IMG/VR virus record: IMGVR_UViG_2778261450_000006
Span: 1 to 41,586 of that record
Strand: one strand, 5' to 3'
DNA: 41,586 nucleotides
Source of the DNA: a virus
Taxonomy: Duplodnaviria > Heunggongvirae > Uroviricota > Caudoviricetes
The notes beneath the pieces were generated by a model. That model did no database searches. It was given only the letters and a program-made list of their open reading frames with translations, and had not been told where the DNA came from. Each line of letters begins with the position of its first letter. Within the stretch, counting starts at the first letter, position 1. The translations under genes were made by a program, and so were the position numbers. This document shows, in pieces, positions 1-26,600 of this stretch.

Positions 1-1719
1 ATGATTTTTAGGGATAGCTTGAGAGTATTACCTTATGGTCGAGTAGATAATGATTTCTTCCAGATAGAAGAAAGACGTTCATGGAATGCAGGGCGATATT
101 ATTGGTCTAATAGAAGGATTTTTGGTTATATTGGAATTACTCAATCCAGTAATAAAGAGCTGAAAGATAAGTCGGGGAGAGAGGGATTCATAAGAAACCA
201 GGCTGCAAGAGAACTGAAAACTATTATATCTAATTTGTTAACTGAACTTGCTGATAGATTTTTTGGTTCACGTTCTGATGACCGTAAAGAGCTTTTAGAA
301 CAAGTTAAGCGTGAAAAAGAGTTAAGAAAATCTGCTCAACAACAAGCTCGAAAATCAACACAAAAAAGTTTTTCAGAAGCTTTGAAGAATCAGACACCAG
401 TTCTTGATGCTTCCTTGGAGGCTGTTAAAAGGCTGAAAACTAAGCTTGATAAAACTGATGGTTCGTTAGATTTAAACTATCTTAAAATTATAGACAGTGA
501 TCTTACAAACTTAGATGCGTTGCGCAGTGAAATTAAAACGCCTATCAAACCTCCAAAACTTGGAATGTATGAAGAGAAATATAGAGACTACAGAGATAAA
601 TTTAATGAGTTCTCTGCGTATATTCTACAAATGAAGTTAGCAATTAATAAACTTGATTCTGAATTAAATAAACTTGAGCCTTCATTGTCAGCGAAAAATC
701 ACCTTGAAAAAAATCAAGGTATTATTAATTCTAAACTAACTAAGTTTAATAACACGATAGAGGAGAAGATACATTCTCTTTTAAAAAAATGGGCCGATGA
801 AATAAAGGTTGATCGAAGTGATTATTATGCTAAAACTATATCAGTTGTTGATTCAATAGATAATGATTCACAAATTGAAAATGTGTTTAATTTGCTCGAT
901 AGTTTATATGTTGAGTCAGTTGATACCCTAACTTTCAAATATCAATCAATAATAAAAGGTCTCGATAGATTATTTGAAGGTATAAACTTAGATTCAGCAT
1001 TCTCATTATCTGAAGAAGAACGCTCATATTTTGAAGAAAAAGCTAAAAGTTTAAACGCGCTTGCACAGTTAGGTATTAGTGTTGAGATAATATCTCATGA
1101 ACTTGAAGAAATGGATTCTATGGTAACCAGAGGACTAAACTCTCTTCCTACTTCTGTAAAAGAACACCCTGGTTTTTCATTGGCGTTAAATGCTCACAGA
1201 TCGCTTACTCAACAAATACGTTTCTTATCACCTTTGAAAATATCAGGTTATCAATCCAGGCAGAGAATAACTGGAAAAAATATCATGGATTATGTCCTGA
1301 AGTTCTTTGGGGAGCGTTTCGAACGGCAACGAATAACTATTGAATTTAGTGAAGAGTTTAAGCAAATCGCAATAACAGATATACCATCAAGGATCTATCC
1401 TGTTTTTACTAATATTATCAACAATGCAATGTATTGGGTCAGTCTGTCAAATAATAGGCTCATAAAGATTGGTTTTGTGAATTCTTTGGTTATCATAGCA
1501 AATTCTGGTCCGGCAATTGATACCGATGATATCCCGCGACTATTTGAACTATTTTATAGCAAAAGAGCAAATGGACATGGGGTAGGTCTGTATCTATGTC
1601 GAGAAAACCTTGCTGTTGCACATCATAAAATATGGTATTCAGAACCTGATGAAGGCGATAACTATTTAATAAAAGATGGCGCTAATTTTGTGATCCAGTT
1701 CAATGGAGTGGAGTTCTAA
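1..1719 (+). CDS. Histidine-kinase-like protein (HisKA-like H-box plus GHKL ATPase domain); N-terminal ~380 aa charged and coiled-coil-like; possibly 5'-truncated by window edge
   Basis: ORF begins at base 1. C-terminal third carries H-box-like ISHELEEM, N-box FTNIINNAMYW, G1-like ANSGPAIDTDD and G2 GHGVGLYLCRENL. Stop overlaps start region of the downstream gene. AT-rich. Confidence 0.6.
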   Translation: MIFRDSLRVLPYGRVDNDFFQIEERRSWNAGRYYWSNRRIFGYIGITQSSNKELKDKSGREGFIRNQAARELKTIISNLLTELADRFFGSRSDDRKELLEQVKREKELRKSAQQQARKSTQKSFSEALKNQTPVLDASLEAVKRLKTKLDKTDGSLDLNYLKIIDSDLTNLDALRSEIKTPIKPPKLGMYEEKYRDYRDKFNEFSAYILQMKLAINKLDSELNKLEPSLSAKNHLEKNQGIINSKLTKFNNTIEEKIHSLLKKWADEIKVDRSDYYAKTISVVDSIDNDSQIENVFNLLDSLYVESVDTLTFKYQSIIKGLDRLFEGINLDSAFSLSEEERSYFEEKAKSLNALAQLGISVEIISHELEEMDSMVTRGLNSLPTSVKEHPGFSLALNAHRSLTQQIRFLSPLKISGYQSRQRITGKNIMDYVLKFFGERFERQRITIEFSEEFKQIAITDIPSRIYPVFTNIINNAMYWVSLSNNRLIKIGFVNSLVIIANSGPAIDTDDIPRLFELFYSKRANGHGVGLYLCRENLAVAHHKIWYSEPDEGDNYLIKDGANFVIQFNGVEF

Positions 1720-1720
1720 T

Positions 1721-3469
1721 ATGACAGTGGCAAATTATAATTCTCTTGTCCAGAAAACTTTCTGCGAAAATGCAATTCGTTCCGTTGTCATGATTGATGA
1801 CGATTTTCTGACGTATTCTGAATCAATCAGGGCGTTGAATAACGAAGTTGATTTAGACTACAACAAAATTGACTCATCTAAACGAGCCGCTACTCTTGAG
1901 AGCTTTTTTCAATCTAAAAATATGATTTGTGATGTTGACAATGGTTCTGTTAATTTCGATGTGGATCGGATTAGAAAATCAGATCTTATTATTGTAGATT
2001 ATCATCTTGATAATAATGCACCTGATAAAACACTTAAACTATTACAAGATTTGAAAGACTCCGATCATTTAAATATGATTGTAATATATACTAGAGAGAA
2101 TTTAGAAACGGTTTGGATGCAGATATCATCGACTCTCAAAGGTGCTCTGGATATCAACAGCTTGATCATTGACTACGATAATGAAGATGTCCAAAGTTAT
2201 TGGGAAGACGTTGTATTACCGAACTTAAATGATAATGGTAATAAAGCTCTCACAAGAGATGAAACAATAGCCTATATTAAAGACAGTAAGCCTTGTAGAA
2301 GAATTAAAAGATTAATACATGATGATGCTGTGTTGGAGGATCAAAAGGATAAAAACTTCATTGCAAAAATGATTGCAGAATATGCTGTGTCTAGAAATGC
2401 AATTATTTCTAGCAACACATCTGGCAATGTCATTCGGGGTGATGAAAGCGGAGTAAAATGGATTCAATGTGGTAATATCTTTGTCTCCCTATTTCATAAG
2501 GTTCAAGATGATCATGAAAACGATGGAGATAGGATTTGGCAAACTCTCAATGATTCTCTCATTGAATGGAAACCATCTTATTATCAGTTAATAAAATCTG
2601 AAATTCAGAATGCAATCGAAGCTGAGGCTTTATCTTTTGTAAATCATTTGGCTAACGATCATTACGGTCAAGCTGCGTGGTTAAATGAGATATTAAAATC
2701 AGACTCGCCTGATATTAGATGTAGAAATATTGACTTTGTATTTGGTAATTTATCAGAAGAGCTTTATCAAAGACTTAAAAATAATAATACGCTGGATGAA
2801 TTTATCAAAAGTGTTTTTGATAGCTATTCAAATGAATACGCTAACAGCGGAGTTGCTGCATTGCTCCAATATTGCTCTTCAAAAATGGATCTGCCATCAA
2901 ATAATGATACTTATCACGAAATGTATCATGCTTTAAATATGAATTTGTCTTCAAAGAATTTTGAAGATGGTCATATTTCTACTGGCACTATTTTCTTTGA
3001 TACAGAGTCGAACAAATGGTATTTATGTGTATCTGCGGCATGTGATTTGGTTCCTACTCAGGGTAACGACCCTCACCATGTAAGATTAAGTCCGCACAGG
3101 CTCATTAAAGTTCTGGAGCTTTTTAACGCCAGTCAGAGTAAAGCATTGCCATTTGCTGAACATTCGAAATATATATATGTAATGCATAAAAATCAAAGAA
3201 AATATCTCTCTATTTTCGAAGGGGATAAAACGCTTCCTGTTGTTGATTATATGGTGGTGTTGAATCATGGAACAACAGTTGATGGCGAAGAAAAAAATAT
3301 TATTTCTGCCGTGTTTTTAAGTAATATGGATGGCAACGTGCAAAATGTTCCTGTCCGACTCAAACTTAAATCTCAACTGAGAACTGGTTATGCAGAAAGA
3401 TATCAGGCTATAGCGTCTCAGTATAGCTCAAGGATTGGTGTGGATTATGTATCAATGATGCTACCATAA
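1721..3469 (+). CDS. Receiver (REC) domain protein with ~450-aa C-terminal domain of unknown function (candidate effector)
   Basis: ATG at 1721 preceded by GGAGTGGAG (track ORF starts 1703). N-terminus has REC-like pattern VVMIDDD ... DLIIVDYHLDN ... NMIVIYT. No HTH or other recognisable output domain. Coupled to upstream kinase-like gene. Confidence 0.6.
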   Translation: MTVANYNSLVQKTFCENAIRSVVMIDDDFLTYSESIRALNNEVDLDYNKIDSSKRAATLESFFQSKNMICDVDNGSVNFDVDRIRKSDLIIVDYHLDNNAPDKTLKLLQDLKDSDHLNMIVIYTRENLETVWMQISSTLKGALDINSLIIDYDNEDVQSYWEDVVLPNLNDNGNKALTRDETIAYIKDSKPCRRIKRLIHDDAVLEDQKDKNFIAKMIAEYAVSRNAIISSNTSGNVIRGDESGVKWIQCGNIFVSLFHKVQDDHENDGDRIWQTLNDSLIEWKPSYYQLIKSEIQNAIEAEALSFVNHLANDHYGQAAWLNEILKSDSPDIRCRNIDFVFGNLSEELYQRLKNNNTLDEFIKSVFDSYSNEYANSGVAALLQYCSSKMDLPSNNDTYHEMYHALNMNLSSKNFEDGHISTGTIFFDTESNKWYLCVSAACDLVPTQGNDPHHVRLSPHRLIKVLELFNASQSKALPFAEHSKYIYVMHKNQRKYLSIFEGDKTLPVVDYMVVLNHGTTVDGEEKNIISAVFLSNMDGNVQNVPVRLKLKSQLRTGYAERYQAIASQYSSRIGVDYVSMMLP

Positions 3470-3540
3470 TTATTATATTTTAGGCGTGGTGATTTTTTTT
3501 CGCCATGCCTATTTTATATTTATCATCACAATGATGTTGT

Positions 3541-3957
3541 TTATTTTTGTTTAAGTCTTCTAAGCTTCATGCATTCTAATGAGAATAATAATAGAGTTGT
3601 GCTGTATATAAAGCCAGAGTTAGTTAATAACTTTAAATTTAATGCTTCAGGATTTTCACTGAGAAAGTGAAAGGCATAAACTAAGTATACAGCTAAAGTA
3701 GCCGTTCCAATTGTTGGTCCAATATCGCCTTGATCATGAGGTTCAAGGTTTACATTGAACTTGAAGATTAGCCATTCAAATCCCCAAGTAAAAAAAACAA
3801 CTAATATCATGGCTGCGAATAATTTCGCGATGTTATCTGCTGATGGATTCATCAGAACAGATTGTTTCTGAAAAAATTCACAAAGTGAGAGTCCGAAAAA
3901 AATAAAAAAAAGTGGTCTGGAACTAAATTTTTCAAAAACTTTGAATAGGGTTTCCAT
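3541..3957 (-). CDS. Small multi-pass membrane protein (hypothetical)
   Basis: 138-aa ORF with several hydrophobic stretches (LFFIFFGLSL, AAMILVVFFTWGFEWLIF, TATLAVYLVYAF, FIYSTTLLLFSL). Lies directly downstream of the P4-type integrase on the same strand. Confidence 0.45.
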   Translation of the reverse strand: METLFKVFEKFSSRPLFFIFFGLSLCEFFQKQSVLMNPSADNIAKLFAAMILVVFFTWGFEWLIFKFNVNLEPHDQGDIGPTIGTATLAVYLVYAFHFLSENPEALNLKLLTNSGFIYSTTLLLFSLECMKLRRLKQK

Positions 3958-3995
3958 TTTCTTTACCTTCAGGATTATATTAGCTATTCTGATAC

Positions 3996-5225
3996 TTAGG
4001 CTACCAGAGCATTTGATCTTTGAGCTTGAACGTAATCACTCCACCATTGCATCAAACTCTGTCGCTCTATCAGATATTCTGCACGATTGTATGCTGCGAT
4101 AATTTCATCTTTTTTCGAGTGGGCAAGCGCTGCCTCAAGAACTTCAGCTCTGAATTTACCAGACTCCTCTGCCGCTGTTCGTGCAATAGAACGCATACCG
4201 TGAGCTACAAGCTCGCCTCCGAACCCCATTCGGATGATAGCTGCGTTGGCTGTTTGTTCATGCATATGATTAAGAGGCGCTTTTATGCTGGGGAAAACCC
4301 ATTCTCTATGCCCACTTATTGATTTCATTAATTCAAGGATGCGCAAAGCTTCTTTACTCAAAGGAACTTTGTGAAGCTTTTTCATTTTCATGAAATCAGC
4401 AGGAATGTTCCAAATGCTGTTGGTTGTATCAATATCAGACCACCTTGCGCGAACGGCTTCACCCGGACGAACCCATGTCAACAATTGCCATTCAATTAGC
4501 ATACGTGTTTCCAACCGGATTGACGCATTCGTCAAAGATTCCATAAACCTTGGCAATTCGCTTGGGGGAAGGGCAGGCATATTTTGCTTTTTTGGTTTAC
4601 TGAATCTTTGACCAAGGTTGTCAGCCGGGTTGAACTCAATAAGTTCTTCAGTAGCTGCCCACCGGAAGATTTCATTCAGACGTGAAATGATACGGCGTAG
4701 AGTTTCCAATACGCCTCGTTGCTCAATAGGATCAAGGTGTTGTTTTAAGAGCTTAGGTCGGATCTCATTGATAGGGACATTACCCAGACCGGGAAAGACA
4801 TTTCTCTCTAAGCTGCGCCAGATGTCTGCTGCATGGTCTTGTGAGATACCTGATGTCTTTACCTTCTCATCTAACCATTTCCGCGCTACGGCTTGGAGAG
4901 TGTGCTCAGTAGCACTCTTTAATGCCTTCGCCTTATCGTTGTTATGGATTTGGGGATCAACACCATTTGCCAGAAAGGAGAGATATTCATCACGTAAGGC
5001 TCTGGCTCTTGCAAGGGTAAGGTGAGGATATGTCCCAAGGCTCATTTTGGTTCTTTTCTTGCTCACTGGTACTGCATACCTGAAATACCAATTTTTCTTG
5101 CCTCCTTTCGCCAAAGGAGCGATTCGTAGAATCAGACCATCACCGTCAAACAAGTTGATTTCTTTATCGGCTGGCTTGGTGCTTTTGATTTCAGTGTCAG
5201 TGAGCTTCTTAGCGATTTTTGCCAT
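3996..5225 (-). CDS. intA: P4-type tyrosine integrase (IntA/CP4-57-like)
   Basis: N-terminus MAKIAKKLTDTEIKSTKPADKEINLFDGDGL and C-terminal HGMRS...AHS...AYNRAEYL..QWW motifs typical of P4-family integrases. Start chosen at the internal ATG (5223-5225) with GAGGG RBS; track ORF extends to 5267. Adjacent to the 45-bp ssrA 3' fragment. Confidence 0.85.
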   Translation of the reverse strand: MAKIAKKLTDTEIKSTKPADKEINLFDGDGLILRIAPLAKGGKKNWYFRYAVPVSKKRTKMSLGTYPHLTLARARALRDEYLSFLANGVDPQIHNNDKAKALKSATEHTLQAVARKWLDEKVKTSGISQDHAADIWRSLERNVFPGLGNVPINEIRPKLLKQHLDPIEQRGVLETLRRIISRLNEIFRWAATEELIEFNPADNLGQRFSKPKKQNMPALPPSELPRFMESLTNASIRLETRMLIEWQLLTWVRPGEAVRARWSDIDTTNSIWNIPADFMKMKKLHKVPLSKEALRILELMKSISGHREWVFPSIKAPLNHMHEQTANAAIIRMGFGGELVAHGMRSIARTAAEESGKFRAEVLEAALAHSKKDEIIAAYNRAEYLIERQSLMQWWSDYVQAQRSNALVA

Positions 5226-10360: not shown

Positions 10361-11214
10361 GCACCATCCTGAAATGGGCAGGTAATAAAACTGCCATTAT
10401 GTCCGAACTGAAAAAACATCTTCCTGCTGGCCCGCGACTGGTTGAACCTTTCGCGGGTTCCTGTGCTGTGATGATGGAGACGGATTACCCCAGCTATCTT
10501 GTTGCGGATATTAATCCTGATTTAATCAACCTCTATAAAAAGGTTGCTGCTGATTGTGAATCGTTTATATCTCGCGCCAGAGTTTTATTTGAGATCGCAA
10601 ACAGGGAGGTGGCTTATTACAACATAAGGCAGGAGTTTAATTACTCAACTGAAATTACTGATTTCATGAAAGCGGTATATTTCCTGTATCTAAATCGTCA
10701 CGGTTACCGTGGTTTATGTCGCTATAACAAGAGCGGGCATTTCAACATTCCCTACGGTAATTATAAAAATCCGTATTTCCCTGAAAAAGAAATTCGCGCA
10801 TTTGCAGAAAAAGCCCAGCGAGCAACGTTTATCTGCGCCAGCTTTGATGAAACGCTGGCGATGTTGAAAGCGGGGGATGTGGTGTATTGCGATCCGCCGT
10901 ATGACGGTACGTTTTCCGGCTATCACACTGACGGCTTCACTGAAGATGACCAGTATCACCTGGCATCTGTTCTTGAACATCGGTCATCAGAAGGACATCC
11001 GGTCATTGTTTCTAACAGTGACACATCCCTGATCCGTTCGCTGTATCGCAATTTTACTCACCACTACATCAAGGCAAAACGCAGCATCGGTGTGGCAGCT
11101 GGCGAGGGTAAATCAGCAACAGAAATCATTGCTGTTTCCGGGCCGCGCTGCTGGGTGGGATTTGATTATTCGCGTGGCGTGGATAGTTCTGCCGTGTACG
11201 GAGTACGTGCATGA
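10357..11214 (+). CDS. dam: Orphan DNA adenine methyltransferase (Dam family)
   Basis: Start [18 protein letters not shown] (AdoMet-binding) and DPPY catalytic motif; no adjacent restriction endonuclease gene. Confidence 0.85.
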
Positions 11215-13625
11215 GTCATGCCGATATGAACAACTGCTGCGGCTTTAACGAAGCTGCCGCATCGTTCTCATGGAACAGCCCGAAAAAGGCCATTAACCCT
11301 TATCTGGACCCGGCGGAAGTTGCGCCGGTTTCTACGCTTTCAAACCTGATCACTCTGTACGCTGCCGATAACGAGCAGGAACAGCTGCGCCGTGAGGCGC
11401 TGAGTGATCAGGTCTGGGAGCGTTATTTCTTTAATGAATCCCGTGATCCTGTCCAGCGCGAAATGGAGCAGGATAAGCTCATTAGTCGGGCAAAGCTGGC
11501 GCATGAGCAGCAGCGTTTTAACCCGGACATGGTCATTCTGGCAGACGTCAGCGCCCAGCCCTCCCATATCAGCAAGCCGCTGATGCAACGTATTGAATAC
11601 TTCAGCAGCCTTGGCAGGCCAAAGGCTTATTCCCGCTATTTGCGTGAGACGATTAAGCCATGTCTGGAACGGCTGGAGCATGTACGCGACAGTCAGCTAT
11701 CCACATCTTTTCGCTTTATGGCAAGCCATGAAGGGCTGGACGGCCTGCTGATTCTGCCTGAAATGAGTCAGGATCAGGTGAAACGCCTGTCCACCCTTGT
11801 TGCTGCGCATATGAGCATGTGCCTTGATGCAGCTTGTGGCGATTTGTATGTCACCGATGACGTTAAGCCAGAAGAAATCCGCAAGACATGGGAAAAGGTG
11901 GCAGCAGAAACCCTGCGACTGGATGTCATACCGCCTGCGTTTGAGCAACTCCGCCGGAAAAGAAACCGCCGTAAACCCGTGCCATATGAACTCATTCCGG
12001 GTTCGCTGGCGCGTATGTTGTGCGCCGATTGGTGGTACCGGAAATTATGGAAGATGCGTTGCGAATGGCGGGAAGAGCAGTTGCGTGCTGTTTGCCTGGT
12101 CAGCAAAAAAGCATCTCCCTATGTCAGCTATGAAGCCGTGATGCATAAACGTGAGCAGCGCCGTAAGTCGCTGGAGTTTTTCCGTTCTCATGAACTGGTG
12201 AACGAAGACGGCGACACGCTGGACATGGAGGATGTGGTAAACGCCAGCAGCAGCAACCCTGCGCATCGCCGCAATGAGATGATGGCCTGTGTTAAAGGTC
12301 TGGAGCTTATCGCGGAAATGCGCGGTGACTGCGCCGTTTTCTACACCATCACCTGTCCGTCACGTTTCCATTCCACGCTAAATAACGGCAGGCCCAACCC
12401 GACCTGGACAAATACGACGGTAAGACAAAGCAGTGATTATCTGGTCGGCATGTTTGCTGCATTTCGTAAGGCGATGCACAAAGCCGGATTGCGCTGGTAT
12501 GGCGTGCGGGTGGCTGAGCCGCATCATGACGGTACAGTTCACTGGCACCTGTTGTGTTTTATGCGCAAAAAAGATCGCCGCACCATTACTGCTTTGTTGC
12601 GTAAGTTTGCCATTCGTGAAGACCGCGAGGAGCTGGGTAATAACACGGGACCACGCTTTAAGTCTGAGCTGATAAACCCGCGCAAAGGTACGCCAACAAG
12701 CTACATCGCGAAATACATCAGTAAGAACATTGACGGGCGTGGTCTGGCTGGCGAGATCAGCAAGGAAACGGGTAAATCCCTGCGTGATAACGCTGAATAC
12801 GTTAATGCCTGGGCGTCTCTGCATCGTGTTCAGCAATTCCGCTTCTTTGGCATTCCGGGGCGTCAGGCTTACCGTGAACTGCGATTGCTGGCTGGTCAGG
12901 CGGCAAGGCAACAGGGGGACAAAAAAGCAGGTGCGCCGGTACTGGATAACCCGCGCCTTGATGCAATCCTGGCTGCTGCTGATGCTGGTTGTTTTGCCAC
13001 CTACATCATGAAGCAGGGCGGCGTACTGGTTCCCCGCAAATATCACCTCATCAGAACTGCTTATGAAATCAACGAAGAACCGACCGCATATGGCGATCAC
13101 GGTATTCGTATTTATGGCATCTGGTCACCCATTGCAGAGGGCAAGATCTGCACTCATGCGGTGAAGTGGAAAATGGTTCGTAAGGCTGTTGACGTTCAGG
13201 AGGCGGCAGCCGACCAGGGCGCTTGCGCCCCTTGGACTCGTGGCAATAACTGTCCCCTTGCTGAAAATTTGAACCAACAAGGGAAAGACAAATCAGCTGA
13301 TGGGGATACCAGAACGGAAATCACCCGCATGGATGACAAGGAATTGCACGATTACCTGCACAGTATGAGCAAAAAAGAGCGCCGGGAACTGGCAGCAAGG
13401 TTACGCCTGGTTAAACCGAAACGGCGTAAAGACTACAAACAGCGAATTACAGATCATCAGCGACAGCAGCTCGTCTATGAACTGAAGTCCAGAGGATTTG
13501 ATGGCAGCGAGAAAGAGGTCGATTTACTCCTTCGCGGCGGCAGTATTCCGTCAGGAGCAGGCCTGCGTATCTTCTATCGGAACCAGCGTCTGCAGGAGGA
13601 TGATAAATGGCGGAACCTGTATTAA
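11211..13625 (+). CDS. A: Replication initiation protein A (rolling-circle nickase, P2 gpA family)
   Basis: 804 aa; HUH-like VHWHLL motif and YIAKYISK tyrosine motif; position between early genes and SOS operon. Confidence 0.9.
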
Positions 13626-13777: not shown

Positions 13778-13966
13778 ATGCAGGACTATTTTTTGGAGTC
13801 TTTGAAGCTCCAGCGCATTGATTTTTTTCTTAAGCTTGTAGCGGCTAGTGAGTGTAGTGATGAAGAGAAGGGGCTGGCCCTGCAGTGGGTTTCTGAACTG
13901 ACAGATGAACTCATGGCAAAAATCAGAACCCACGAATACAACCGCTCAATGGATGTCATCAGCTGA
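13778..13966 (+). CDS. Small SOS-controlled protein, candidate Tum-like antirepressor N-terminal module
   Basis: 62-aa ORF with AGGAGG RBS directly downstream of the LexA box; position corresponds to 186 tum. Confidence 0.45.
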   Translation: MQDYFLESLKLQRIDFFLKLVAASECSDEEKGLALQWVSELTDELMAKIRTHEYNRSMDVIS

Positions 13967-13976
13967 GGTGACTTTT

Positions 13977-14210
13977 ATGCGCATTGAAATAATGATCGAT
14001 AAAGAGCAGAAGATTAGCCAGTCTACCCTGGACGCTCTGGAGTCAGAGCTTTACCGCAACCTGCAACCCATCTATCCCAAGACAGCTATCCGCATCCGTA
14101 AAGGGTCGGCAAACGGCGTTGAGCTGAGTGGCTTAAAGCTTGATGAAGACAAAAAGCGGGTGATGGAAATTATGCAGCAGGTTTGGGAAGACGACAGCTG
14201 GCTGCACTAA
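13977..14210 (+). CDS. dinI: DinI-family protein
   Basis: MRIEIMIDKEQKISQSTLDALESEL...EDKKRVMEIMQQVWEDDSW resembles E. coli DinI; ATG 13977 with GAGGTG RBS (track ORF starts 13905). Confidence 0.75.
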   Translation: MRIEIMIDKEQKISQSTLDALESELYRNLQPIYPKTAIRIRKGSANGVELSGLKLDEDKKRVMEIMQQVWEDDSWLH

Positions 14211-14283
14211 GGAACGTTCCTGATGTAAGAACTTGATTCTGACGTCAGCAAGGTTGAACAACGAGAGTAGCGAGGCGTTAGCC

Positions 14284-14544
14284 ATGGGTAAAAAAGACAG
14301 TAATCACCAGATTATTTATCGGGGCCAGGTGCTGGAACGGTTTACCCCTGGCGGCTGGGTCTTCTTTCAACGCCCAAAGGAGTGTGGCGGAGGTTTTTGG
14401 TTGGGCCGCACCTATGAAGACTGCTTCTGGCTTGAGCTGGAATTCCCCGTTTCGCTATATGACGGCCTGGAGTTTTTGATGGAAGTCACCAGGGTAGAGC
14501 AGAGAAGTGATGAGGTTGACGCGAATTATTCCCTGTTTGATTAA
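14284..14544 (+). CDS. Hypothetical protein
   Basis: 86-aa ORF from ATG 14284 (track ORF starts 14233); no recognisable motif. Confidence 0.4.
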   Translation: MGKKDSNHQIIYRGQVLERFTPGGWVFFQRPKECGGGFWLGRTYEDCFWLELEFPVSLYDGLEFLMEVTRVEQRSDEVDANYSLFD

Positions 14545-14592
14545 AAATGTATTAGCTTATAATGGAATACTATTTTTGCAGGTGGGGGCGCA

Positions 14593-15204
14593 ATGGATTT
14601 AGTCTTTAAAATTCTGGCTTCGTTGGGTGGGGTGTCTTTTGTTGCATCTGGCATATTTGTTTGGATCGGGAAAGTTTATTTAGAAAGATATAAGTCGCGG
14701 CTAAACAAAGATATTGCTGAATTTCAATCACAACTGAGTGCAACTAATGAAAGAATAAAGGCTAAGTTAGACAATTCTGTTTATGTAACGAAAGCGTATT
14801 TTGATAAGGAGTTATCAGCATATAGTCTCATTTGGAATTCGATGTTTGAAACCAGAGAAAGCGTGCTTAAGCTGAGGCCTGCGCTGGATCATTTTGACCC
14901 CAACGAACCATTTGAAGAGAGAAAATTTAGAAGGTTGAAAGTTTTTTTCGATGCATTTAATACTTTTGTTACAAGTGTTGAGTCTAACAAACCGTTCATC
15001 TCACCAGAGGTTTATATAATCTTGGACCGTTTCCGGAAGGAATGCCTTTCAGAGTCAATATCGTTTCAGCATGGCGATCCAGAATTTGACTGGCAAAATT
15101 ATTGGAAAGAGGCAGAGTTGAACCGTACAACCATCACCAAGCTTTTTGATGAGACGTGTGATGCAATTCGAGACAGGATGCACACATTAACTGTGGTTAC
15201 GTAG
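14593..15204 (+). CDS. Membrane-anchored protein of unknown function (single N-terminal TM helix; cargo)
   Basis: 203 aa, hydrophobic N-terminus ILASLGGVSFVASGIFVWIG followed by a soluble domain; AT-rich; followed by a terminator. Confidence 0.5.
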   Translation: MDLVFKILASLGGVSFVASGIFVWIGKVYLERYKSRLNKDIAEFQSQLSATNERIKAKLDNSVYVTKAYFDKELSAYSLIWNSMFETRESVLKLRPALDHFDPNEPFEERKFRRLKVFFDAFNTFVTSVESNKPFISPEVYIILDRFRKECLSESISFQHGDPEFDWQNYWKEAELNRTTITKLFDETCDAIRDRMHTLTVVT

Positions 15205-15295
15205 TTTTCCAAAAAGTCTCGATGCCCGCTTTGGCGATTGTGCATGTCTATGCCGCATGAATCCGCATGATCGTTTGAGGATCGTTTTAGCTGAG

Positions 15296-15319
15296 GCCCG
15301 CTAGGAATGGCGGGCTTTT
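15296..15319 (+). terminator. Rho-independent terminator
   Basis: gcccgc / gcgggc stem with 8-nt loop followed by TTTT. Confidence 0.5.
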
Positions 15320-15364
15320 GCTTATGTCATGCAGGCGCATGAAAACCACTACATAAAGCGGGCA

Positions 15365-15383
15365 GGCGTGGCGGGGATACGAG
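15365..15383. other. Candidate cos (cohesive-end) site of the P2/186-family phage
   Basis: ggcgtggcggggatacgag resembles the P2 19-nt cohesive end GGCGAGGCGGGGAAAGCAC as recalled from memory. Confidence 0.35.
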
Positions 15384-15535
15384 CGCGCGCTAAGTCATAT
15401 AAGAGTTATATATTGATTTGATTGCTGGACATGCATACAGTATCGCTCTATCATCTAATAAATCTTAGAGTATTTGGCAATGTTTGGATAAAATGGAACC
15501 TAACTTATTCATAATCCGCTAAACAGGGATGTCAG

Positions 15536-16450
15536 ATGCCATACCAATTGGTAGAGCTTAGCCCCGTAGCTAACGATCTTGAACAGTTAGGAACCAAAGA
15601 GAAGTTTTGGTTCTATTTCTCCGATGACACTGTAAATTTGCAGTTGTTTAAGTACTCTAGGCCAGGTACTGGCGAGCATTGGTCTGAAAAGTGTGCTGCT
15701 GAGTTATGTCATTTGCTTAACATTCCACATGCTAGCTATGATTTGGCGCGATACAATGGTCGATTCGGTGTGGTGACTCAGAATATCATTCCATCTGGTT
15801 TCCGGATGGTAATGGGAAATGAAGTGCTTCACAGTTCGACATTCGATTATCCTGGGCCTTTACAAGCCGGGGAAAAGCCGGTAAGGGTCAGAGAACACAC
15901 TGTCACAAGGGTATTGGGTTGTTTGGATAGGGAATCTATCAAGCCTCCTCCGAGTGTATATGATCTAACCGGGCTAAATGCAGCAGATGTATTTTGTGGA
16001 TATTTGATGCTCGATGCACTTGTGAGTAATCAAGATCGCCATCATGAAAATTGGGCGATCATGCTTAACAATGAAACTGGTGAGCAGTTTTTGTGTCCAA
16101 CATACGATCATGCCGCTAGTTTAGGAAGGGAGATGTTAGATGATGAGCGTAACGAACGGCTTAATACTAAAGATAAAAATCGACAAATCCCATGTTTTGT
16201 AAGAAAAGCTCGCTCTGAGCTATTCAAAGCAAAAACTGATAAAAAGCCCTTGCTGACCGTTGAAGCATTTCAACATGCAGTTGAAGGGAGAGTTGCCGCT
16301 CGCGACCATTGGTTAGGTAAGTTGAGCGTTTTAACAGAAGATTCCATTACAGATGTGTTTAACCAAGTGCCTTCATCGTGTATATCCGACAGTGCACGTA
16401 GATTTGCAACGTTAATGGTAATGGAAAATCGCAGAAGGTTACTAGAATGA
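15536..16450 (+). CDS. HipA-like serine/threonine kinase core (lacks HipA N-terminal subdomain)
   Basis: P-loop-like GTKEKF near N-terminus and catalytic motif LDALVSNQDRHHENWAIM matching the HipA D-x-H-x-x-N region; YDHAASLG follows. AT-rich leader. Confidence 0.7.
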   Translation: MPYQLVELSPVANDLEQLGTKEKFWFYFSDDTVNLQLFKYSRPGTGEHWSEKCAAELCHLLNIPHASYDLARYNGRFGVVTQNIIPSGFRMVMGNEVLHSSTFDYPGPLQAGEKPVRVREHTVTRVLGCLDRESIKPPPSVYDLTGLNAADVFCGYLMLDALVSNQDRHHENWAIMLNNETGEQFLCPTYDHAASLGREMLDDERNERLNTKDKNRQIPCFVRKARSELFKAKTDKKPLLTVEAFQHAVEGRVAARDHWLGKLSVLTEDSITDVFNQVPSSCISDSARRFATLMVMENRRRLLE

Positions 16451-17187
16451 CTAATACAAACTCCGTTTACGTCGCATGGCAGGCACCAGATACCAGAGAC
16501 TGGCATGTTGTTGGTAACTTGCAAGAGCGCAAATCGGGGTATGTTTTCAGGTATACCAAAGGTGCTCTTAAATCTACTAAATTTACAAAGTTTAGCGGCA
16601 TGAGTGATGTTCGTGAAACTTATGTTTCGGAAGAATTGTTTCCTCTTTTTAAAAATCGCCTTTTATCACCGAGACGTCCAGAGTATCCGAGTTTCATTAA
16701 ATGGCTTGGATTTGAAGAAGATAAGGTAAATCCTATCGATATTCTTGCTCGCTCGGGAGGCTTACGAAGCACTGATCAGCTGCAGATTTTCAAAAAAATT
16801 GATGTTGATTCTGATGGTAACTTTGAGCATTTTTTCTTCTTACATGGACTTGGTTACTTAAATAGCTTAGCTAATGCTCGTGTATCTGAATTGAAACCGG
16901 GGCAAATTTTGCGTCTTTGCTTGGATCTTCAAAATGAATACGATGGGGATGCTGTTGTCGTTCGTGCAGATAAACCAGCTGAAATCGTTGGTTACTGCCC
17001 TAGGTATTTAAGTAATGATATCAAGAAGATGTTATTGGATGATCCAAAATCAATCACTTTAACGGTCGAAAAGATTAGCGATGATGCTCCTCATAACTAT
17101 CGGTTATTATGTAAATTATCAGGAGTACTAAGCCAAGCCTGTCAATCGACGCTGATTCCTCAGGATGAGTTTGAACCTATTGAGTAA
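16447..17187 (+). CDS. HIRAN-domain protein with N-terminal HipA-N/HipS-like region
   Basis: C-terminal LKPGQILRLCLDLQNEYDGDAVVVRADKPAEIVGYCPRYL matches the HIRAN signature; start overlaps kinase stop (ATGA). Confidence 0.65.
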   Translation: MTNTNSVYVAWQAPDTRDWHVVGNLQERKSGYVFRYTKGALKSTKFTKFSGMSDVRETYVSEELFPLFKNRLLSPRRPEYPSFIKWLGFEEDKVNPIDILARSGGLRSTDQLQIFKKIDVDSDGNFEHFFFLHGLGYLNSLANARVSELKPGQILRLCLDLQNEYDGDAVVVRADKPAEIVGYCPRYLSNDIKKMLLDDPKSITLTVEKISDDAPHNYRLLCKLSGVLSQACQSTLIPQDEFEPIE

Positions 17188-17221: not shown

Positions 17222-18262
17222 TTATGGGACTATATCTAGCGAGTAGGTATTAAACTGTATCGCCTCCTTGCCAAGCCAATCATTCATCTCCTGTAATCGC
17301 TTTTGTAGTGGCATTAGCTCATTTCGGACGAATACACGGCTTGCCTTTTCCACATCCCCAAACCCCCCAACATTATTCGGCATAATCCCCATCATTTGCG
17401 GCGGCACGCGGTGCGCTGCCATCATGTCATCCCGACTCACGTTCTTGATGTTAAGAAATTCATCCTTCGCCGCGACTTCTGACAATGGGATGATCTGAAG
17501 CCCGTCTTTTTTGCCGTTAGGTGAGTACATAAACAGGTTGCGGAAGTTGCCTGGACCTTTGGCGCTTTTCATCGCGTTGCGGAGGTTGTTCACATCCTCC
17601 TGATTCTGCGCGGCATCGGTCATGTACATGATGAAGCCTGCATGGCTGCCGTTAATGTAATACTTACGGCGGAACAACGTGGCGGACTCGTTGAGCAGGG
17701 CTGACGGAATGGCAGAAAGATAACCGGGCAGGCCGTAGATCTCCTGGTTGATATCCGGTTCCATCAGATGAAAGATGCTGCCTTTCGTGAACTGATACGG
17801 CTGCGTAGTCATGCCGTATTGCACAAACCAGTAGGTATCCAGGTCTAACCCGCGTCGGGTGTATTTTGCCAGAGCAGGCTCAAGGGCGATAACTTCACCG
17901 AAGCGGTTCGTGCGTTTCTCCAGGTAGGCGTTACCAAATACCAGATAGTCCTGCACAAAACGTGAAAAAGCCTGCTGGCTGAGCAGCGGGTGGGGGATGT
18001 AGGTACTGGTCAGAATGTTGCATTTCACCGCAATTGGTGAACTGTGATGCACGGCGGCGCGGAAGGTGCGCGCCAGTCCGTCAAAGCTTACTGGCGGCTC
18101 ATACCAGCGATCTGTCTGTACGCATTCCACATAGTCCAGTAGTTCGCGGCGGTCCAGAACAGGAACGGGATCACCGAAGCTGAATGCTTCGGCTGTAGTT
18201 TGACTTTTATGCTGGATCTGGTTCGTCGACGCAGCGCGGTTCTTCTTACTCTTTCCCATCAA
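17222..18262 (-). CDS. Q: Portal protein (P2 gpQ family)
   Basis: 346 aa, size and position (leftward, paired with P, divergent from O) match P2 Q. Confidence 0.9.
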   Translation of the reverse strand: MMGKSKKNRAASTNQIQHKSQTTAEAFSFGDPVPVLDRRELLDYVECVQTDRWYEPPVSFDGLARTFRAAVHHSSPIAVKCNILTSTYIPHPLLSQQAFSRFVQDYLVFGNAYLEKRTNRFGEVIALEPALAKYTRRGLDLDTYWFVQYGMTTQPYQFTKGSIFHLMEPDINQEIYGLPGYLSAIPSALLNESATLFRRKYYINGSHAGFIMYMTDAAQNQEDVNNLRNAMKSAKGPGNFRNLFMYSPNGKKDGLQIIPLSEVAAKDEFLNIKNVSRDDMMAAHRVPPQMMGIMPNNVGGFGDVEKASRVFVRNELMPLQKRLQEMNDWLGKEAIQFNTYSLDIVP

Positions 18263-25160: not shown

Positions 25161-25599
25161 ACTGCAGAAGGTGGACGATTGGCTGAGTGCTTTGCTGGCG
25201 AATCTGGAACCAGCCGCAAGAAGCCGCATGATGCGCCAGCTGGCGCAGGAACTGCGCCGGACACAGCAGCAGAATATCAGAATGCAGCGCAATCCAGATG
25301 GCAGCAGTTATGAACCTCGACGGGTAACAGCACGCAGTAAAAAGGGGCGCATCAAACGTCAGATGTTTGCAAAGCTGCGCACCACAAAATACCTGAAAAC
25401 TGCCGCCAGCGCCGACTCTGCCAGCGTACAGTTTGAAGGTAAGGTGCAGCGTATTGCCCGTGTTCACCATTACGGCCTGCGCGATCGTGTAAGCCGCCGG
25501 GGGCCAGAGGTACGTTATGCGGAGCGGCTGTTACTAGGTTTTACTTCATCTGACAAAGATGAAATTGCATCTGTCGTTTATAAATGGCTAAGGCCTTAA
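25153..25599 (+). CDS. S: Tail completion protein S (P2 gpS family)
   Basis: 148 aa, GTG start overlapping R stop. Confidence 0.85.
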   Translation: MAELQKVDDWLSALLANLEPAARSRMMRQLAQELRRTQQQNIRMQRNPDGSSYEPRRVTARSKKGRIKRQMFAKLRTTKYLKTAASADSASVQFEGKVQRIARVHHYGLRDRVSRRGPEVRYAERLLLGFTSSDKDEIASVVYKWLRP

Positions 25600-25613
25600 T
25601 TCCTTCGTTATAT

Positions 25614-26600
25614 TTACTCTTTGTAAATTCGATCTGGCTCGTTGTACTCTATTTCTCTCAGTCGACCATTTTTAATGGTGAAATTACCTTTTTCTGATTT
25701 AAATTCCCCACCACATTTACAAGGCTTGTTATCAGAAAGAGTGTAGTTTTTTAGTATTAGTTCATCATCGTTGTCAAAGGTGGGGATTATTTTTTTAGTT
25801 TCAGCGCATTGCGTGCACTTAACTTGCAATTCCGGGAGTGTGGTACAAGCTGTAAGGCTCAGTTCGACATTCTCTGGAACAATGTAATATCCTAGCAATG
25901 GTGTCCCACGACTTTCTGAAACACCTTTGTATGTATTGGTTATGCCTCCAATAAATGCAAGGATTTCATCATACGCTTGAGTATTACGCATTGTTACCCA
26001 GCAATCTCGATCTTCATAACTATACTCACGACCTGCAACGCAAATTGCTGTAACGTAACGAAAGTCTTCTTTGTATATTTTTTTATACCTTTCGGCTTCA
26101 GTAATTCCATTTGGTGATAAGTCACTACTTAGAGCAAATATTACCGAGCGAAGTTTCTCTATTTTGTGTTGGATTAGTTTGCCTGATTCATCTTTTATTC
26201 CAGGTAAGTAACCGAATTTCTCATTAAGTTCTTTTGCACTTGAGTGTGCAGAGCTGAGTTCCGATGAACTTAATGTGGTTTTTACCTCAATGGTATATAG
26301 AACTGATTCTATTGGGAATAACCCTGTGGCACCATCGATTAATATCGGAGGGAGTATTGATTTATTGTAAATAATAATATCTATTTGAGGTGATAACTTT
26401 CCTGAATACTGTTCAATGATTTGCCCTGTGCCAATGCCAACATCTGCGGGCAAAAGAGGTCGAAATAGTTGACTTAATAATATTTCTAGAACAGCTCCCT
26501 TAACACCCTGGTGGGAAAATCCTGCAGCACTTTTGGCTTGAGCAATCGCCGATTCGACCTTCCCTCTAAGTAAAGCCTGATACTGGTTCTTATTTTTCAT
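25614..26600 (-). CDS. Cargo protein: PD-(D/E)xK-like nuclease fold with C-terminal zinc-ribbon (candidate anti-phage defence gene)
   Basis: 328-aa antisense ORF between S and V, strongly AT-rich against a GC-rich late operon. Motifs PQIDIIIYN ... ESVLYTIEVKT (D ... E-x-K) and C-terminal CTQCAETKK ... CKCGG cysteine cluster. Confidence 0.6.
   Translation of the reverse strand: MKNKNQYQALLRGKVESAIAQAKSAAGFSHQGVKGAVLEILLSQLFRPLLPADVGIGTGQIIEQYSGKLSPQIDIIIYNKSILPPILIDGATGLFPIESVLYTIEVKTTLSSSELSSAHSSAKELNEKFGYLPGIKDESGKLIQHKIEKLRSVIFALSSDLSPNGITEAERYKKIYKEDFRYVTAICVAGREYSYEDRDCWVTMRNTQAYDEILAFIGGITNTYKGVSESRGTPLLGYYIVPENVELSLTACTTLPELQVKCTQCAETKKIIPTFDNDDELILKNYTLSDNKPCKCGGEFKSEKGNFTIKNGRLREIEYNEPDRIYKE

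Follow-up and report, generated by a model that had tools for sequence, protein, structure and literature searches.

A lysogen-expressed single-pass membrane protein in the cos-proximal cargo slot of a Cartapus-like P2 prophage

Gene content of the gpA–cos interval

The DNA analyzed here, IMG/VR record IMGVR_UViG_2778261450_000006 at its full length of 41,586 nucleotides (the window), carries a P2-family (Peduoviridae) prophage of the Cartapus/Fels-2-like type. Its gpA-to-cos stretch is 99.9% identical to Escherichia phage Cartapus, a P2/Fels-2-like prophage in E. coli LF82. Two open reading frames (ORFs), ORF86 and ORF203, coding for proteins of 86 and 203 residues, lie between the DinI-family gene and the cos site (Table 1). 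ORF203 is a horizontally acquired single-pass membrane protein that is maintained by selection, is expressed in the lysogen, and occupies a phage defense hotspot. An earlier note made from the sequence of this DNA had described the two ORFs, assigned them to a slot equivalent to that of old and tin in P2, and proposed the larger product as a superinfection exclusion or abortive infection factor. Both ORFs and the DinI assignment are borne out. The interval had been given as starting at 14233, which is only the upstream TTG of a mechanically called ORF; ORF86 itself is real and begins at ATG 14284, and RefSeq calls the same 86 residue protein in LF82. The description of the interval as AT-rich holds for ORF203, at 38.6% GC versus 52.8% for gpA, and not for ORF86, at 49.8% GC.

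Table 1. Features of the window from gpA (replication) to gpQ (portal)
Feature	Position	Strand	Remarks
gpA	11211-13625	+	Replication gene, left hotspot border; 52.8% GC
62-residue ORF (orf62)	13778-13966	+	phrog_698
DinI-family gene	13977-14210	+	Pfam DinI 2e-24; last conserved backbone gene of early gpA operon
Cargo cassette, 955 bp, left of cos	14283-15237	+	Alignment with empty site of phage vB_EcoM-813R9
ORF86	14284-14544	+	86-residue soluble protein, phrog_2100; early-operon accessory gene
Candidate sigma-70 promoter of ORF203	14538-14564	+	TTGATT-15 nt-TATAAT, overlaps ORF86 stop codon
ORF203	14593-15204	+	203 residues, predicted single-pass inner-membrane protein, lysogen-expressed moron; phrog_26391 6e-144
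Conserved cos block	15238-15401	.	Backbone dividing two cargo slots; alignment of seven P2-like loci
Terminator-like hairpin plus TTTTGCTT	15293-15324	+	GC-rich stem; RNA fold
cos core GGCGTGGCGGGGATACGAG	15365-15383	+	P2 cosR match, Cartapus cos annotation, invariance among relatives
HipA-like kinase (304 residues) and HIRAN protein (246 residues)	15536-17187	+	Second, independent cargo, right of cos
Portal gene gpQ	17222-18262	-	Right hotspot border; 96% identity to Cartapus portal

A bounded cassette in the P2 hotspot

Comparisons with collinear relatives define the extent of the insertion and the variability of the site. First, phage vB_EcoM-813R9 has the same backbone with nothing between DinI and cos. 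In a global alignment, homology to this empty site stops at position 14282 and restarts at 15238, with ~4 bp in between in 813R9, so that the insert corresponds to 14283–15237, or 955 bp. Second, the content of this cassette is exactly ORF86 and ORF203, with the ORF86 ATG at its left edge and the corresponding ribosome-binding site in backbone DNA. Third, the DinI gene is kept in Fels-2, 813R9 and the Klebsiella relatives, and the slot that follows it is occupied by unrelated ORFs of 243 residues in Fels-2, of 72 and 280 residues in Klebsiella phage ST15-OXA48phi14.1, and of 225 residues in Klebsiella phage ST11-OXA245phi3.1.

The cos-proximal interval between gpA and gpQ is the published P2 defense hotspot, in which old and tin reside in P2 itself (Rousset et al. 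2022; PMC9122126). The ORF86/ORF203 locus has the properties of cargo in this hotspot, as it lies between gpA and gpQ beside cos, varies among collinear relatives, and forms a bounded insert; the proposed equivalence to the old/tin slot is thus upheld by the locus comparison that the earlier note had called for. The cassette block is found in 41 of 5426 complete E. coli genomes. It is also represented in the published catalog, where Table S5B of Rousset et al. 2022 lists, as system 39, a protein that is two residues off ORF203, with no Pfam assignment, the remark '1 TM' (one transmembrane segment), and occurrence in 103 of 18,150 loci, and Table S5A gives loci with the RefSeq accessions of both ORF86 and ORF203. 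A literature search using these RefSeq accessions found no citing paper.

Expression and selection of ORF203

ORF203 is 100% identical to LF82_789, or CARTA_47, at 2759532–2760143 of the LF82 chromosome. Misson et al. 2023 (PMC9928086) defined the morons of LF82 prophages by RNA-seq, and LF82_789 is one of only two for Cartapus, at 45.8 normalized counts versus a prophage median of 6.9, or 7-fold above background in lysogens. The 5-fold step from the ORF86 orthologue (9.0) to ORF203 indicates a promoter in the 48-bp spacer between the two genes or at the 3’ end of ORF86. The putative sigma-70 promoter TTGATT-15-TATAAT, which overlaps the ORF86 stop codon, is our candidate for ORF203's own promoter. 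This motif is kept in a lineage whose ORF203 is 83% identical, and a Shine-Dalgarno-like sequence, GGTGGGGG, is present at 14581–14588, upstream of ORF203. Transcription of ORF203 in the lysogen is independent of the repressed lytic operons, as expected of a moron, and ORF86 does not share this property. ORF203 is almost certainly cargo and a moron.

Comparison with the 83%-identity lineage yields a ratio of nonsynonymous to synonymous substitution rates (dN/dS) of 0.12–0.13 for ORF203, at a dS of ~0.77, revealing purifying selection. This bears on the question of whether ORF86 and ORF203 are simply decaying passenger DNA with no current function. Truncated or N-terminally shortened variants of ORF203 do occur in some genomes (P0012–P0017, and E. 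coli AHB30), and ORF86 is a pseudogene in one lineage. However, the dN/dS of ORF203 makes decay unlikely, full length is kept across a family of 921 clusters, and the gene is actively transcribed downstream of a conserved promoter motif, so that decay is scarcely credible.

A role for ORF203 in the phage life cycle, whether in anchoring replication or packaging to the membrane near cos or in regulating lysis timing, would suit a membrane protein with a coiled-coil stalk whose gene adjoins both cos and the replication operon. The existence of empty-site relatives makes such a role unlikely. Moreover, ORF203 has a foreign base composition and is missing from most close relatives, its expression is already seen in the repressed prophage and not only on induction, and the P2-type lysis and replication genes all lie elsewhere in Cartapus. 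We consider a life-cycle function very improbable.

Predicted topology and structure

The earlier description of the 203 residue protein as one N-terminal transmembrane helix followed by a soluble domain agrees with both hydropathy and structure prediction. A single hydrophobic helix spans approximately residues 3–25 (nt 14599–14667), with a best 19-residue Kyte-Doolittle mean of 2.02, and is rich in small residues, of which G12, G13, S15, S19 and G20 make up one face. The AlphaFold2 model (mean predicted local distance difference test score, pLDDT, of 80.7) is all-helical with four helices, comprising a long helix of residues 2–92 that forms the transmembrane segment and a stalk, followed by helices at residues 107–131, 138–160 and 167–202. 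The hydrophobic N-terminal segment is a general property of the family, reaching the cut-off in 65 of 70 aligned members and being present in 143 of 164 family sequences in a set that includes fragments. The stalk varies in length, with an 11-residue deletion in some members, for example.

Family members have a short N-terminal tail (median 7 residues) that is acidic or neutral, and the 15 residues past the helix are basic. Lysine plus arginine residues after the helix outnumber those before it in 68 of the 70 members, with averages of 3.6 versus 0.4. By the positive-inside rule, this distribution places the soluble domain in the cytoplasm. The predicted topology is therefore N-out, with ~6 residues outside the membrane, and C-in, with a cytoplasmic four-helix bundle. 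Invariant or nearly invariant residues of ORF203 are E73, W81, R95, P96, R114, P134, F135, E154, R193 and R195.

A large family in several mobile element contexts

An exhaustive profile search of 1.84 billion representative sequences recovered 921 clusters at 50% identity with E ≤ 1e-3, of which 386 reach E ≤ 1e-10. Lengths are 180–240 residues in nearly all of the best 150 of the 921 matches. Profile searches with ORF203 and 70 diverse members reveal no consistent Pfam family or PDB sequence match, and ORF203 has no NCBIfam match. Matches of the 70 relatives to PADLOC are limited to scattered single hits at E ≥ 1e-4, and the profile scans of ORF203 return weak coiled-coil noise only (Val_tRNA-synt_C, Apolipoprotein). 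The family is thus sizeable and has no characterized member.

The orthologue of ORF203 in several E. coli genomes (H39–H41) carries the label 'valyl-tRNA synthetase' from the Prokaryotic Genome Annotation Pipeline/RefSeq. This is a misannotation that probably derives from the sub-threshold Pfam Val_tRNA-synt_C match, which scores 16.7 bits against a cutoff of 25.9.

Genomic neighborhoods were recovered from a narrower alignment for 2 genome loci and 26 viral loci. Close relatives, at 76–96% identity, are found in Escherichia, Enterobacter and Citrobacter, and in the recovered P2-like viral loci they occupy the same hotspot slot. Relatives at 40–49% identity lie directly downstream of genes for a P4-type integrase and AlpA, in satellite-like islands whose further content includes a HEPN gene and an AAA_25 replicase-like gene. 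More distant members are present in Pseudomonas phage Riah, beside the cI region (profile E 4e-43), and in Clostridium phage Maintenon, between terS and terL (profile E 2e-25). Since no neighbor is conserved across these contexts, the family appears to consist of a stand-alone gene that mobile elements have repeatedly placed in accessory slots.

The integrase/AlpA islands (L030–L035; L033 2087–14562) also carry DUF4222 and are situated between lambda-type terminase and portal genes and a gene for a ClpP-capsid fusion. This arrangement could represent the layout of a capsid-forming satellite or a satellite inserted in a head module.

The expression pattern and the distribution of relatives both bear on the main rival to an anti-phage role. 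ORF203 could be a lysogenic conversion factor that acts on host physiology, as a membrane-tethered cytoplasmic adaptor that shares the topology of YhcB or EzrA and modulates functions of the envelope, of division or of stress, conferring a benefit on lysogens in the gut or in macrophages, for example. The protein has no defense-type domain, the hotspot also carries non-defense cargo, and distant relatives are solitary chromosomal genes with no defense neighbors. Furthermore, LF82_789 is expressed at a log2 value of ~5.5 in lysogeny broth, 7–8.6 in Dulbecco's modified Eagle's medium (DMEM), and 9–10.5 inside macrophages. However, the other lysogen-expressed Cartapus genes, namely cI, the exonuclease gene and the DUF4145 gene, climb in parallel, and the rise in DMEM and macrophages does not discriminate between the two roles because it is common to all lysogen-expressed genes of this prophage. 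The family is also found repeatedly in the defense-enriched slots of several kinds of mobile element, and none of its members matches a Pfam family, DUF1043/YhcB and EzrA included. On balance, a host physiology function is rather unlikely.

ORF86 is a separate early gene

ORF86 has no Pfam match, no known fold, and no PADLOC-DB v2.0.0 match at E ≤ 1. Its family, phrog_2100, is confined to Enterobacterales and consists of proteins of ~85 residues in which the N-terminal 60 are strongly conserved. The UniRef cluster name of one relative, P0262 from Pantoea trifolii, carries a DUF2829 label; an identity as a Tad2/DUF2829 anti-Thoeris protein was rejected on the basis of a Pfam scan of 39 relatives and a fold search, both of which gave it no support.

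In LF82 lysogens the ORF86 orthologue LF82_790 is silent, with its 9.0 normalized counts comparing with 8.2 for DinI and the prophage median given above. The ORF86 transcript rises only along with the early operon, under macrophage conditions, which fits its place as the last early gene. Most simply, ORF86 is an accessory gene that closes the early lytic operon (gpA, orf62, DinI, ORF86) and is used in lytic growth.

The earlier note had treated the two ORFs as one cargo pair. In its strongest form such a pairing would be a two-gene module in which ORF203 is a toxic or abortive effector and ORF86 an early factor that acts as its antidote or confers self-immunity, on the model of Esc and SieB in P22. 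The borders of the cassette enclose exactly these two genes, they occur together in all 21 of the E. coli-type P2-like loci examined, and none of the sampled E. coli records has ORF86 without ORF203. The silence of ORF86 in the lysogen and its increase with the early operon would also suit an antidote, with the annotated sieB/esc genes of P22 as precedent. Several observations oppose this arrangement. First, in the 83%-identity lineage (L024–L028) the ORF86 homologue lacks a start codon, is frameshifted and contains a stop, and DinI is deleted, whereas ORF203 is full length and under purifying selection; this lineage rules out ORF86 as an obligate partner or antidote of ORF203. Second, relatives of ORF86 occur without ORF203 at the end of the ea region in P22-like phages, in the phage-plasmid SSU5, and after DinI in the Klebsiella P2-like phage ST13-OXA48phi12.1. 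Third, ORF86 is not found beside the ORF203 relatives of satellites, other phages and chromosomes. Fourth, a prophage remnant in E. coli AHB30 (L003 4103–6533) contains only ORF203, in a shortened form with ~82% identity beside a truncated integrase. The two-gene module is thus highly unlikely, and the pair does not stand as a unit, given that ORF86 is silent in the lysogen, is found alone elsewhere, and is a pseudogene where ORF203 is intact. ORF86 and ORF203 are functionally separate.

In the AHB30 remnant, a phosphoribosyltransferase and DprA pair lies downstream of the ORF203 homologue. This pair is a P2-hotspot system for which Rousset et al. confirmed activity against T7 and lambda.

The cos block separates two cargo slots

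The candidate cos site of the earlier note is confirmed. Its core, GGCGTGGCGGGGATACGAG, is identical to P2 cosR, GGCGAGGCGGGGAAAGCAC, at 14 of 19 bases and is invariant among aligned relatives, and the Cartapus record has cos annotated from the base equivalent to window position 15333. In an alignment of seven P2-like loci, a block of ~165 bp around this core is near-invariant with unrelated DNA on both flanks; its left part, 15240–15340, is present in 182 E. coli genomes. Because non-homologous DNA lies on either side of this conserved block, the hotspot consists of two slots parted by cos, with the block as the constant hinge on either side of which cargo is exchanged independently.

The hairpin at 15293–15318, followed by TTTTGCTT, has a predicted folding energy of -24.5 kcal/mol (z -4.5), although a simple consensus scan for terminators did not flag it. 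Its stem is conserved and its loop variable, and it is found in all relatives as part of the cos-flanking backbone block. A terminator had been proposed to end the cargo; a strong hairpin with a T-run is indeed present, and it lies outside the cassette. The hairpin would end both the early-operon and the ORF203 transcripts ahead of cos.

The variable region beyond cos, on which the earlier note was silent, contains in the window an overlapping pair of genes for HipA-like and HIRAN proteins ahead of the portal gene. These match the PADLOC candidate system PDC-M03 (PDC-M03A 2e-122, PDC-M03B 3e-93; Pfam HIRAN 1e-13) and correspond to P2-hotspot system 20 of Rousset et al., with 150 occurrences in Table S5B. 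Cartapus in LF82 has the DUF4145 gene at this position. We found no published functional test of the exact pair; another P2 system, 'Exonuclease + HipA', is listed as tested with no detected activity. Across 19 P2-like loci with the ORF86/ORF203 cassette plus the window, at least 11 different cargos are found to the right of cos. Read from sequence, these include a DUF4145 gene, a KAP-like NTPase, a reverse transcriptase pair, an OLD-like ATPase, a RelA/SpoT-like protein, a phosphoribosyltransferase and DprA pair and, in the window, PDC-M03. The association of a single left cassette with so many right cargos suggests recombination within or adjoining cos.

Elsewhere in the window, positions 1–4000 and 25501–26500 are markedly low in GC (29–37%) relative to the prophage structural genes (~55%). 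These stretches, one in the left flank and one in an internal slot, are likely further foreign or accessory DNA.

Comparison with known exclusion proteins

The old and tin genes of P2 resemble ORF203 in being variable, non-essential genes between gpA and cos that are expressed by the prophage from their own promoter, as is proposed for ORF203. They differ in that they are read leftward from near cos, whereas ORF203 is read rightward toward cos, and in that Old is an ATPase/TOPRIM nuclease and Tin a soluble 253 residue protein, in contrast to the helical bundle of ORF203 with its membrane anchor. Homology to either was rejected. ORF203 has no Pfam or PADLOC match to OLD-family nucleases, with BLASTP E ≥ 2.7 and a profile score of -0.7 bits against P2 Old; for P2 Tin, the profile scores -0.5 bits, and the BLASTP match, at E 0.9, extends over 11 residues.

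SieB of P22 and lambda (PF14163), which also occurs in P2 hotspots, is a prophage-expressed membrane protein of ~190 residues that aborts superinfecting phages. It is similar to ORF203 in size, in its N-terminal membrane anchor, and in being a single gene with its own lysogen-active promoter. However, two hydrophobic segments are present in SieB, along with an internal start for Esc, whereas ORF203 has one helix and shows no sign of an internal product. ORF203 was rejected as a SieB homologue, as hhalign gives a probability of 0.08%, hmmsearch gives 1.6 bits, and none of 70 family members matches PF14163 at E ≤ 0.01.

Structurally, the ORF203 bundle resembles sensor bundles of the 4HB_MCP type from chemoreceptors and histidine kinases (such as PDB 4k0d, TorS 3i9w and Tar 1lih), with sequence identities of only 3–9%. 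In those sensors the bundle is periplasmic, whereas ORF203 has a bundle predicted to be cytoplasmic, a single transmembrane helix and no output domain. Membership of this class was rejected for lack of a Pfam 4HB_MCP match and because of the predicted cytoplasmic location.

Small inner-membrane exclusion proteins are also exemplified by HK97 gp15, lactococcal Sie2009 and T4 Imm, whose functional domain is periplasmic or outside, or which are multi-pass. ORF203 is set apart from these three by its predicted topology. The predicted cytoplasmic location of its soluble domain counts against a periplasmic block of DNA entry of the HK97 gp15/Sie2009 type.

P22 gene 17 (L048 28414–28725) is annotated 'allows growth on phage Fels2 lysogen', which indicates that Fels-2-type prophages exclude P22 in the absence of gene 17. 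The Fels-2 determinant responsible might lie in the same hotspot, where the Fels-2 cargo differs from that of the window.

ORF203 has been cataloged twice, as system 39 by Rousset et al. and as LF82_789/CARTA_47 by Misson et al.; those papers give only its occurrence count and its transcription level. The function, topology, family extent and cassette boundaries of this gene are given in neither.

A possible role in phage defense

We favor an anti-phage function for ORF203, although our confidence in it falls a little short of calling it probable. Published base rates from comparable loci are encouraging, as 3 of 8 cloned P2-hotspot systems and 6 of 8 P4-hotspot loci of unknown function were active. 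In the mechanism that we envisage, ORF203 is an autonomous moron whose transcription in the lysogen would be driven by a promoter of its own, situated at the ORF86 stop codon. On the cytoplasmic side of the inner membrane, the bundle of the protein would recognize something that an infecting phage makes or does. The protein might then block an early membrane-associated step of infection. Alternatively, it might oligomerize through its small-residue-rich transmembrane helix to cause membrane collapse and abortive infection; that ORF203 acts specifically by membrane permeabilization in this way is unlikely.

A number of considerations weigh against an anti-phage role. The predicted antiviral share among unknown P2 proteins is only 15–32%, and some content of the P2 hotspot is non-defensive, such as partition systems and cytolethal distending toxin. 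No phenotype for ORF203 was found in the literature; its DNA and protein are absent from the tested-system tables of Rousset 2022, and the supplements of Vassallo 2022 and DefensePredictor do not contain its sequence. ORF203 has no PADLOC-DB v2.0.0 match at E ≤ 1 and no catalytic or known effector signature. Its conserved residues, from where they fall along the predicted helices, appear to form inter-helix salt bridges and turns and not a catalytic site, and the likeness to sensor bundles is generic because talin and bundles designed de novo reach similar scores. Many distant relatives, from metagenomic sequences and metagenome-assembled genomes, are chromosomal singletons in ordinary metabolic neighborhoods, and neither defense genes near distant chromosomal relatives nor a conserved neighbor was seen in the contexts checked. 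Finally, a promoter consensus scan did not flag TTGATT-15-TATAAT, whose 15-nt spacer is non-optimal; the scan missed it because only spacers of 16–18 nt were accepted.

A broader proposal is that ORF203 founds a new and widespread family of single-gene anti-phage proteins, ranging from Proteobacteria to Clostridia and including their phages and satellites, in which a bundle acts as sensor and is joined through a stalk to an oligomerizing transmembrane helix. In this same proposal ORF86 would be an early-gene counter-defense or host-takeover factor common to P2-, P22- and SSU5-like phages and unrelated to ORF203. Taken as a whole, this is doubtful yet worth considering.

Implications for prophage cargo

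The hotspot is one of the best-documented reservoirs of anti-phage systems, system 39 is among its more frequent unannotated occupants, and ORF203 is on in lysogens of the Crohn's-associated strain LF82. ORF203, which has already been cataloged, is a reasonable though not exceptional candidate for tests of phage exclusion. The present analysis adds the empty-site boundaries, a candidate promoter and the independence from ORF86, which together define a minimal unit. If protection were shown, ORF203 would represent a new single-gene, membrane-anchored defense family, since the family is large, has no Pfam entry, and is unrelated to known defense proteins; an anti-phage role, if true, would also account for one of the two morons of Cartapus. 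If the result were negative, ORF203 would be one more passenger of the hotspot and would help to calibrate how much of such hotspots is defensive.

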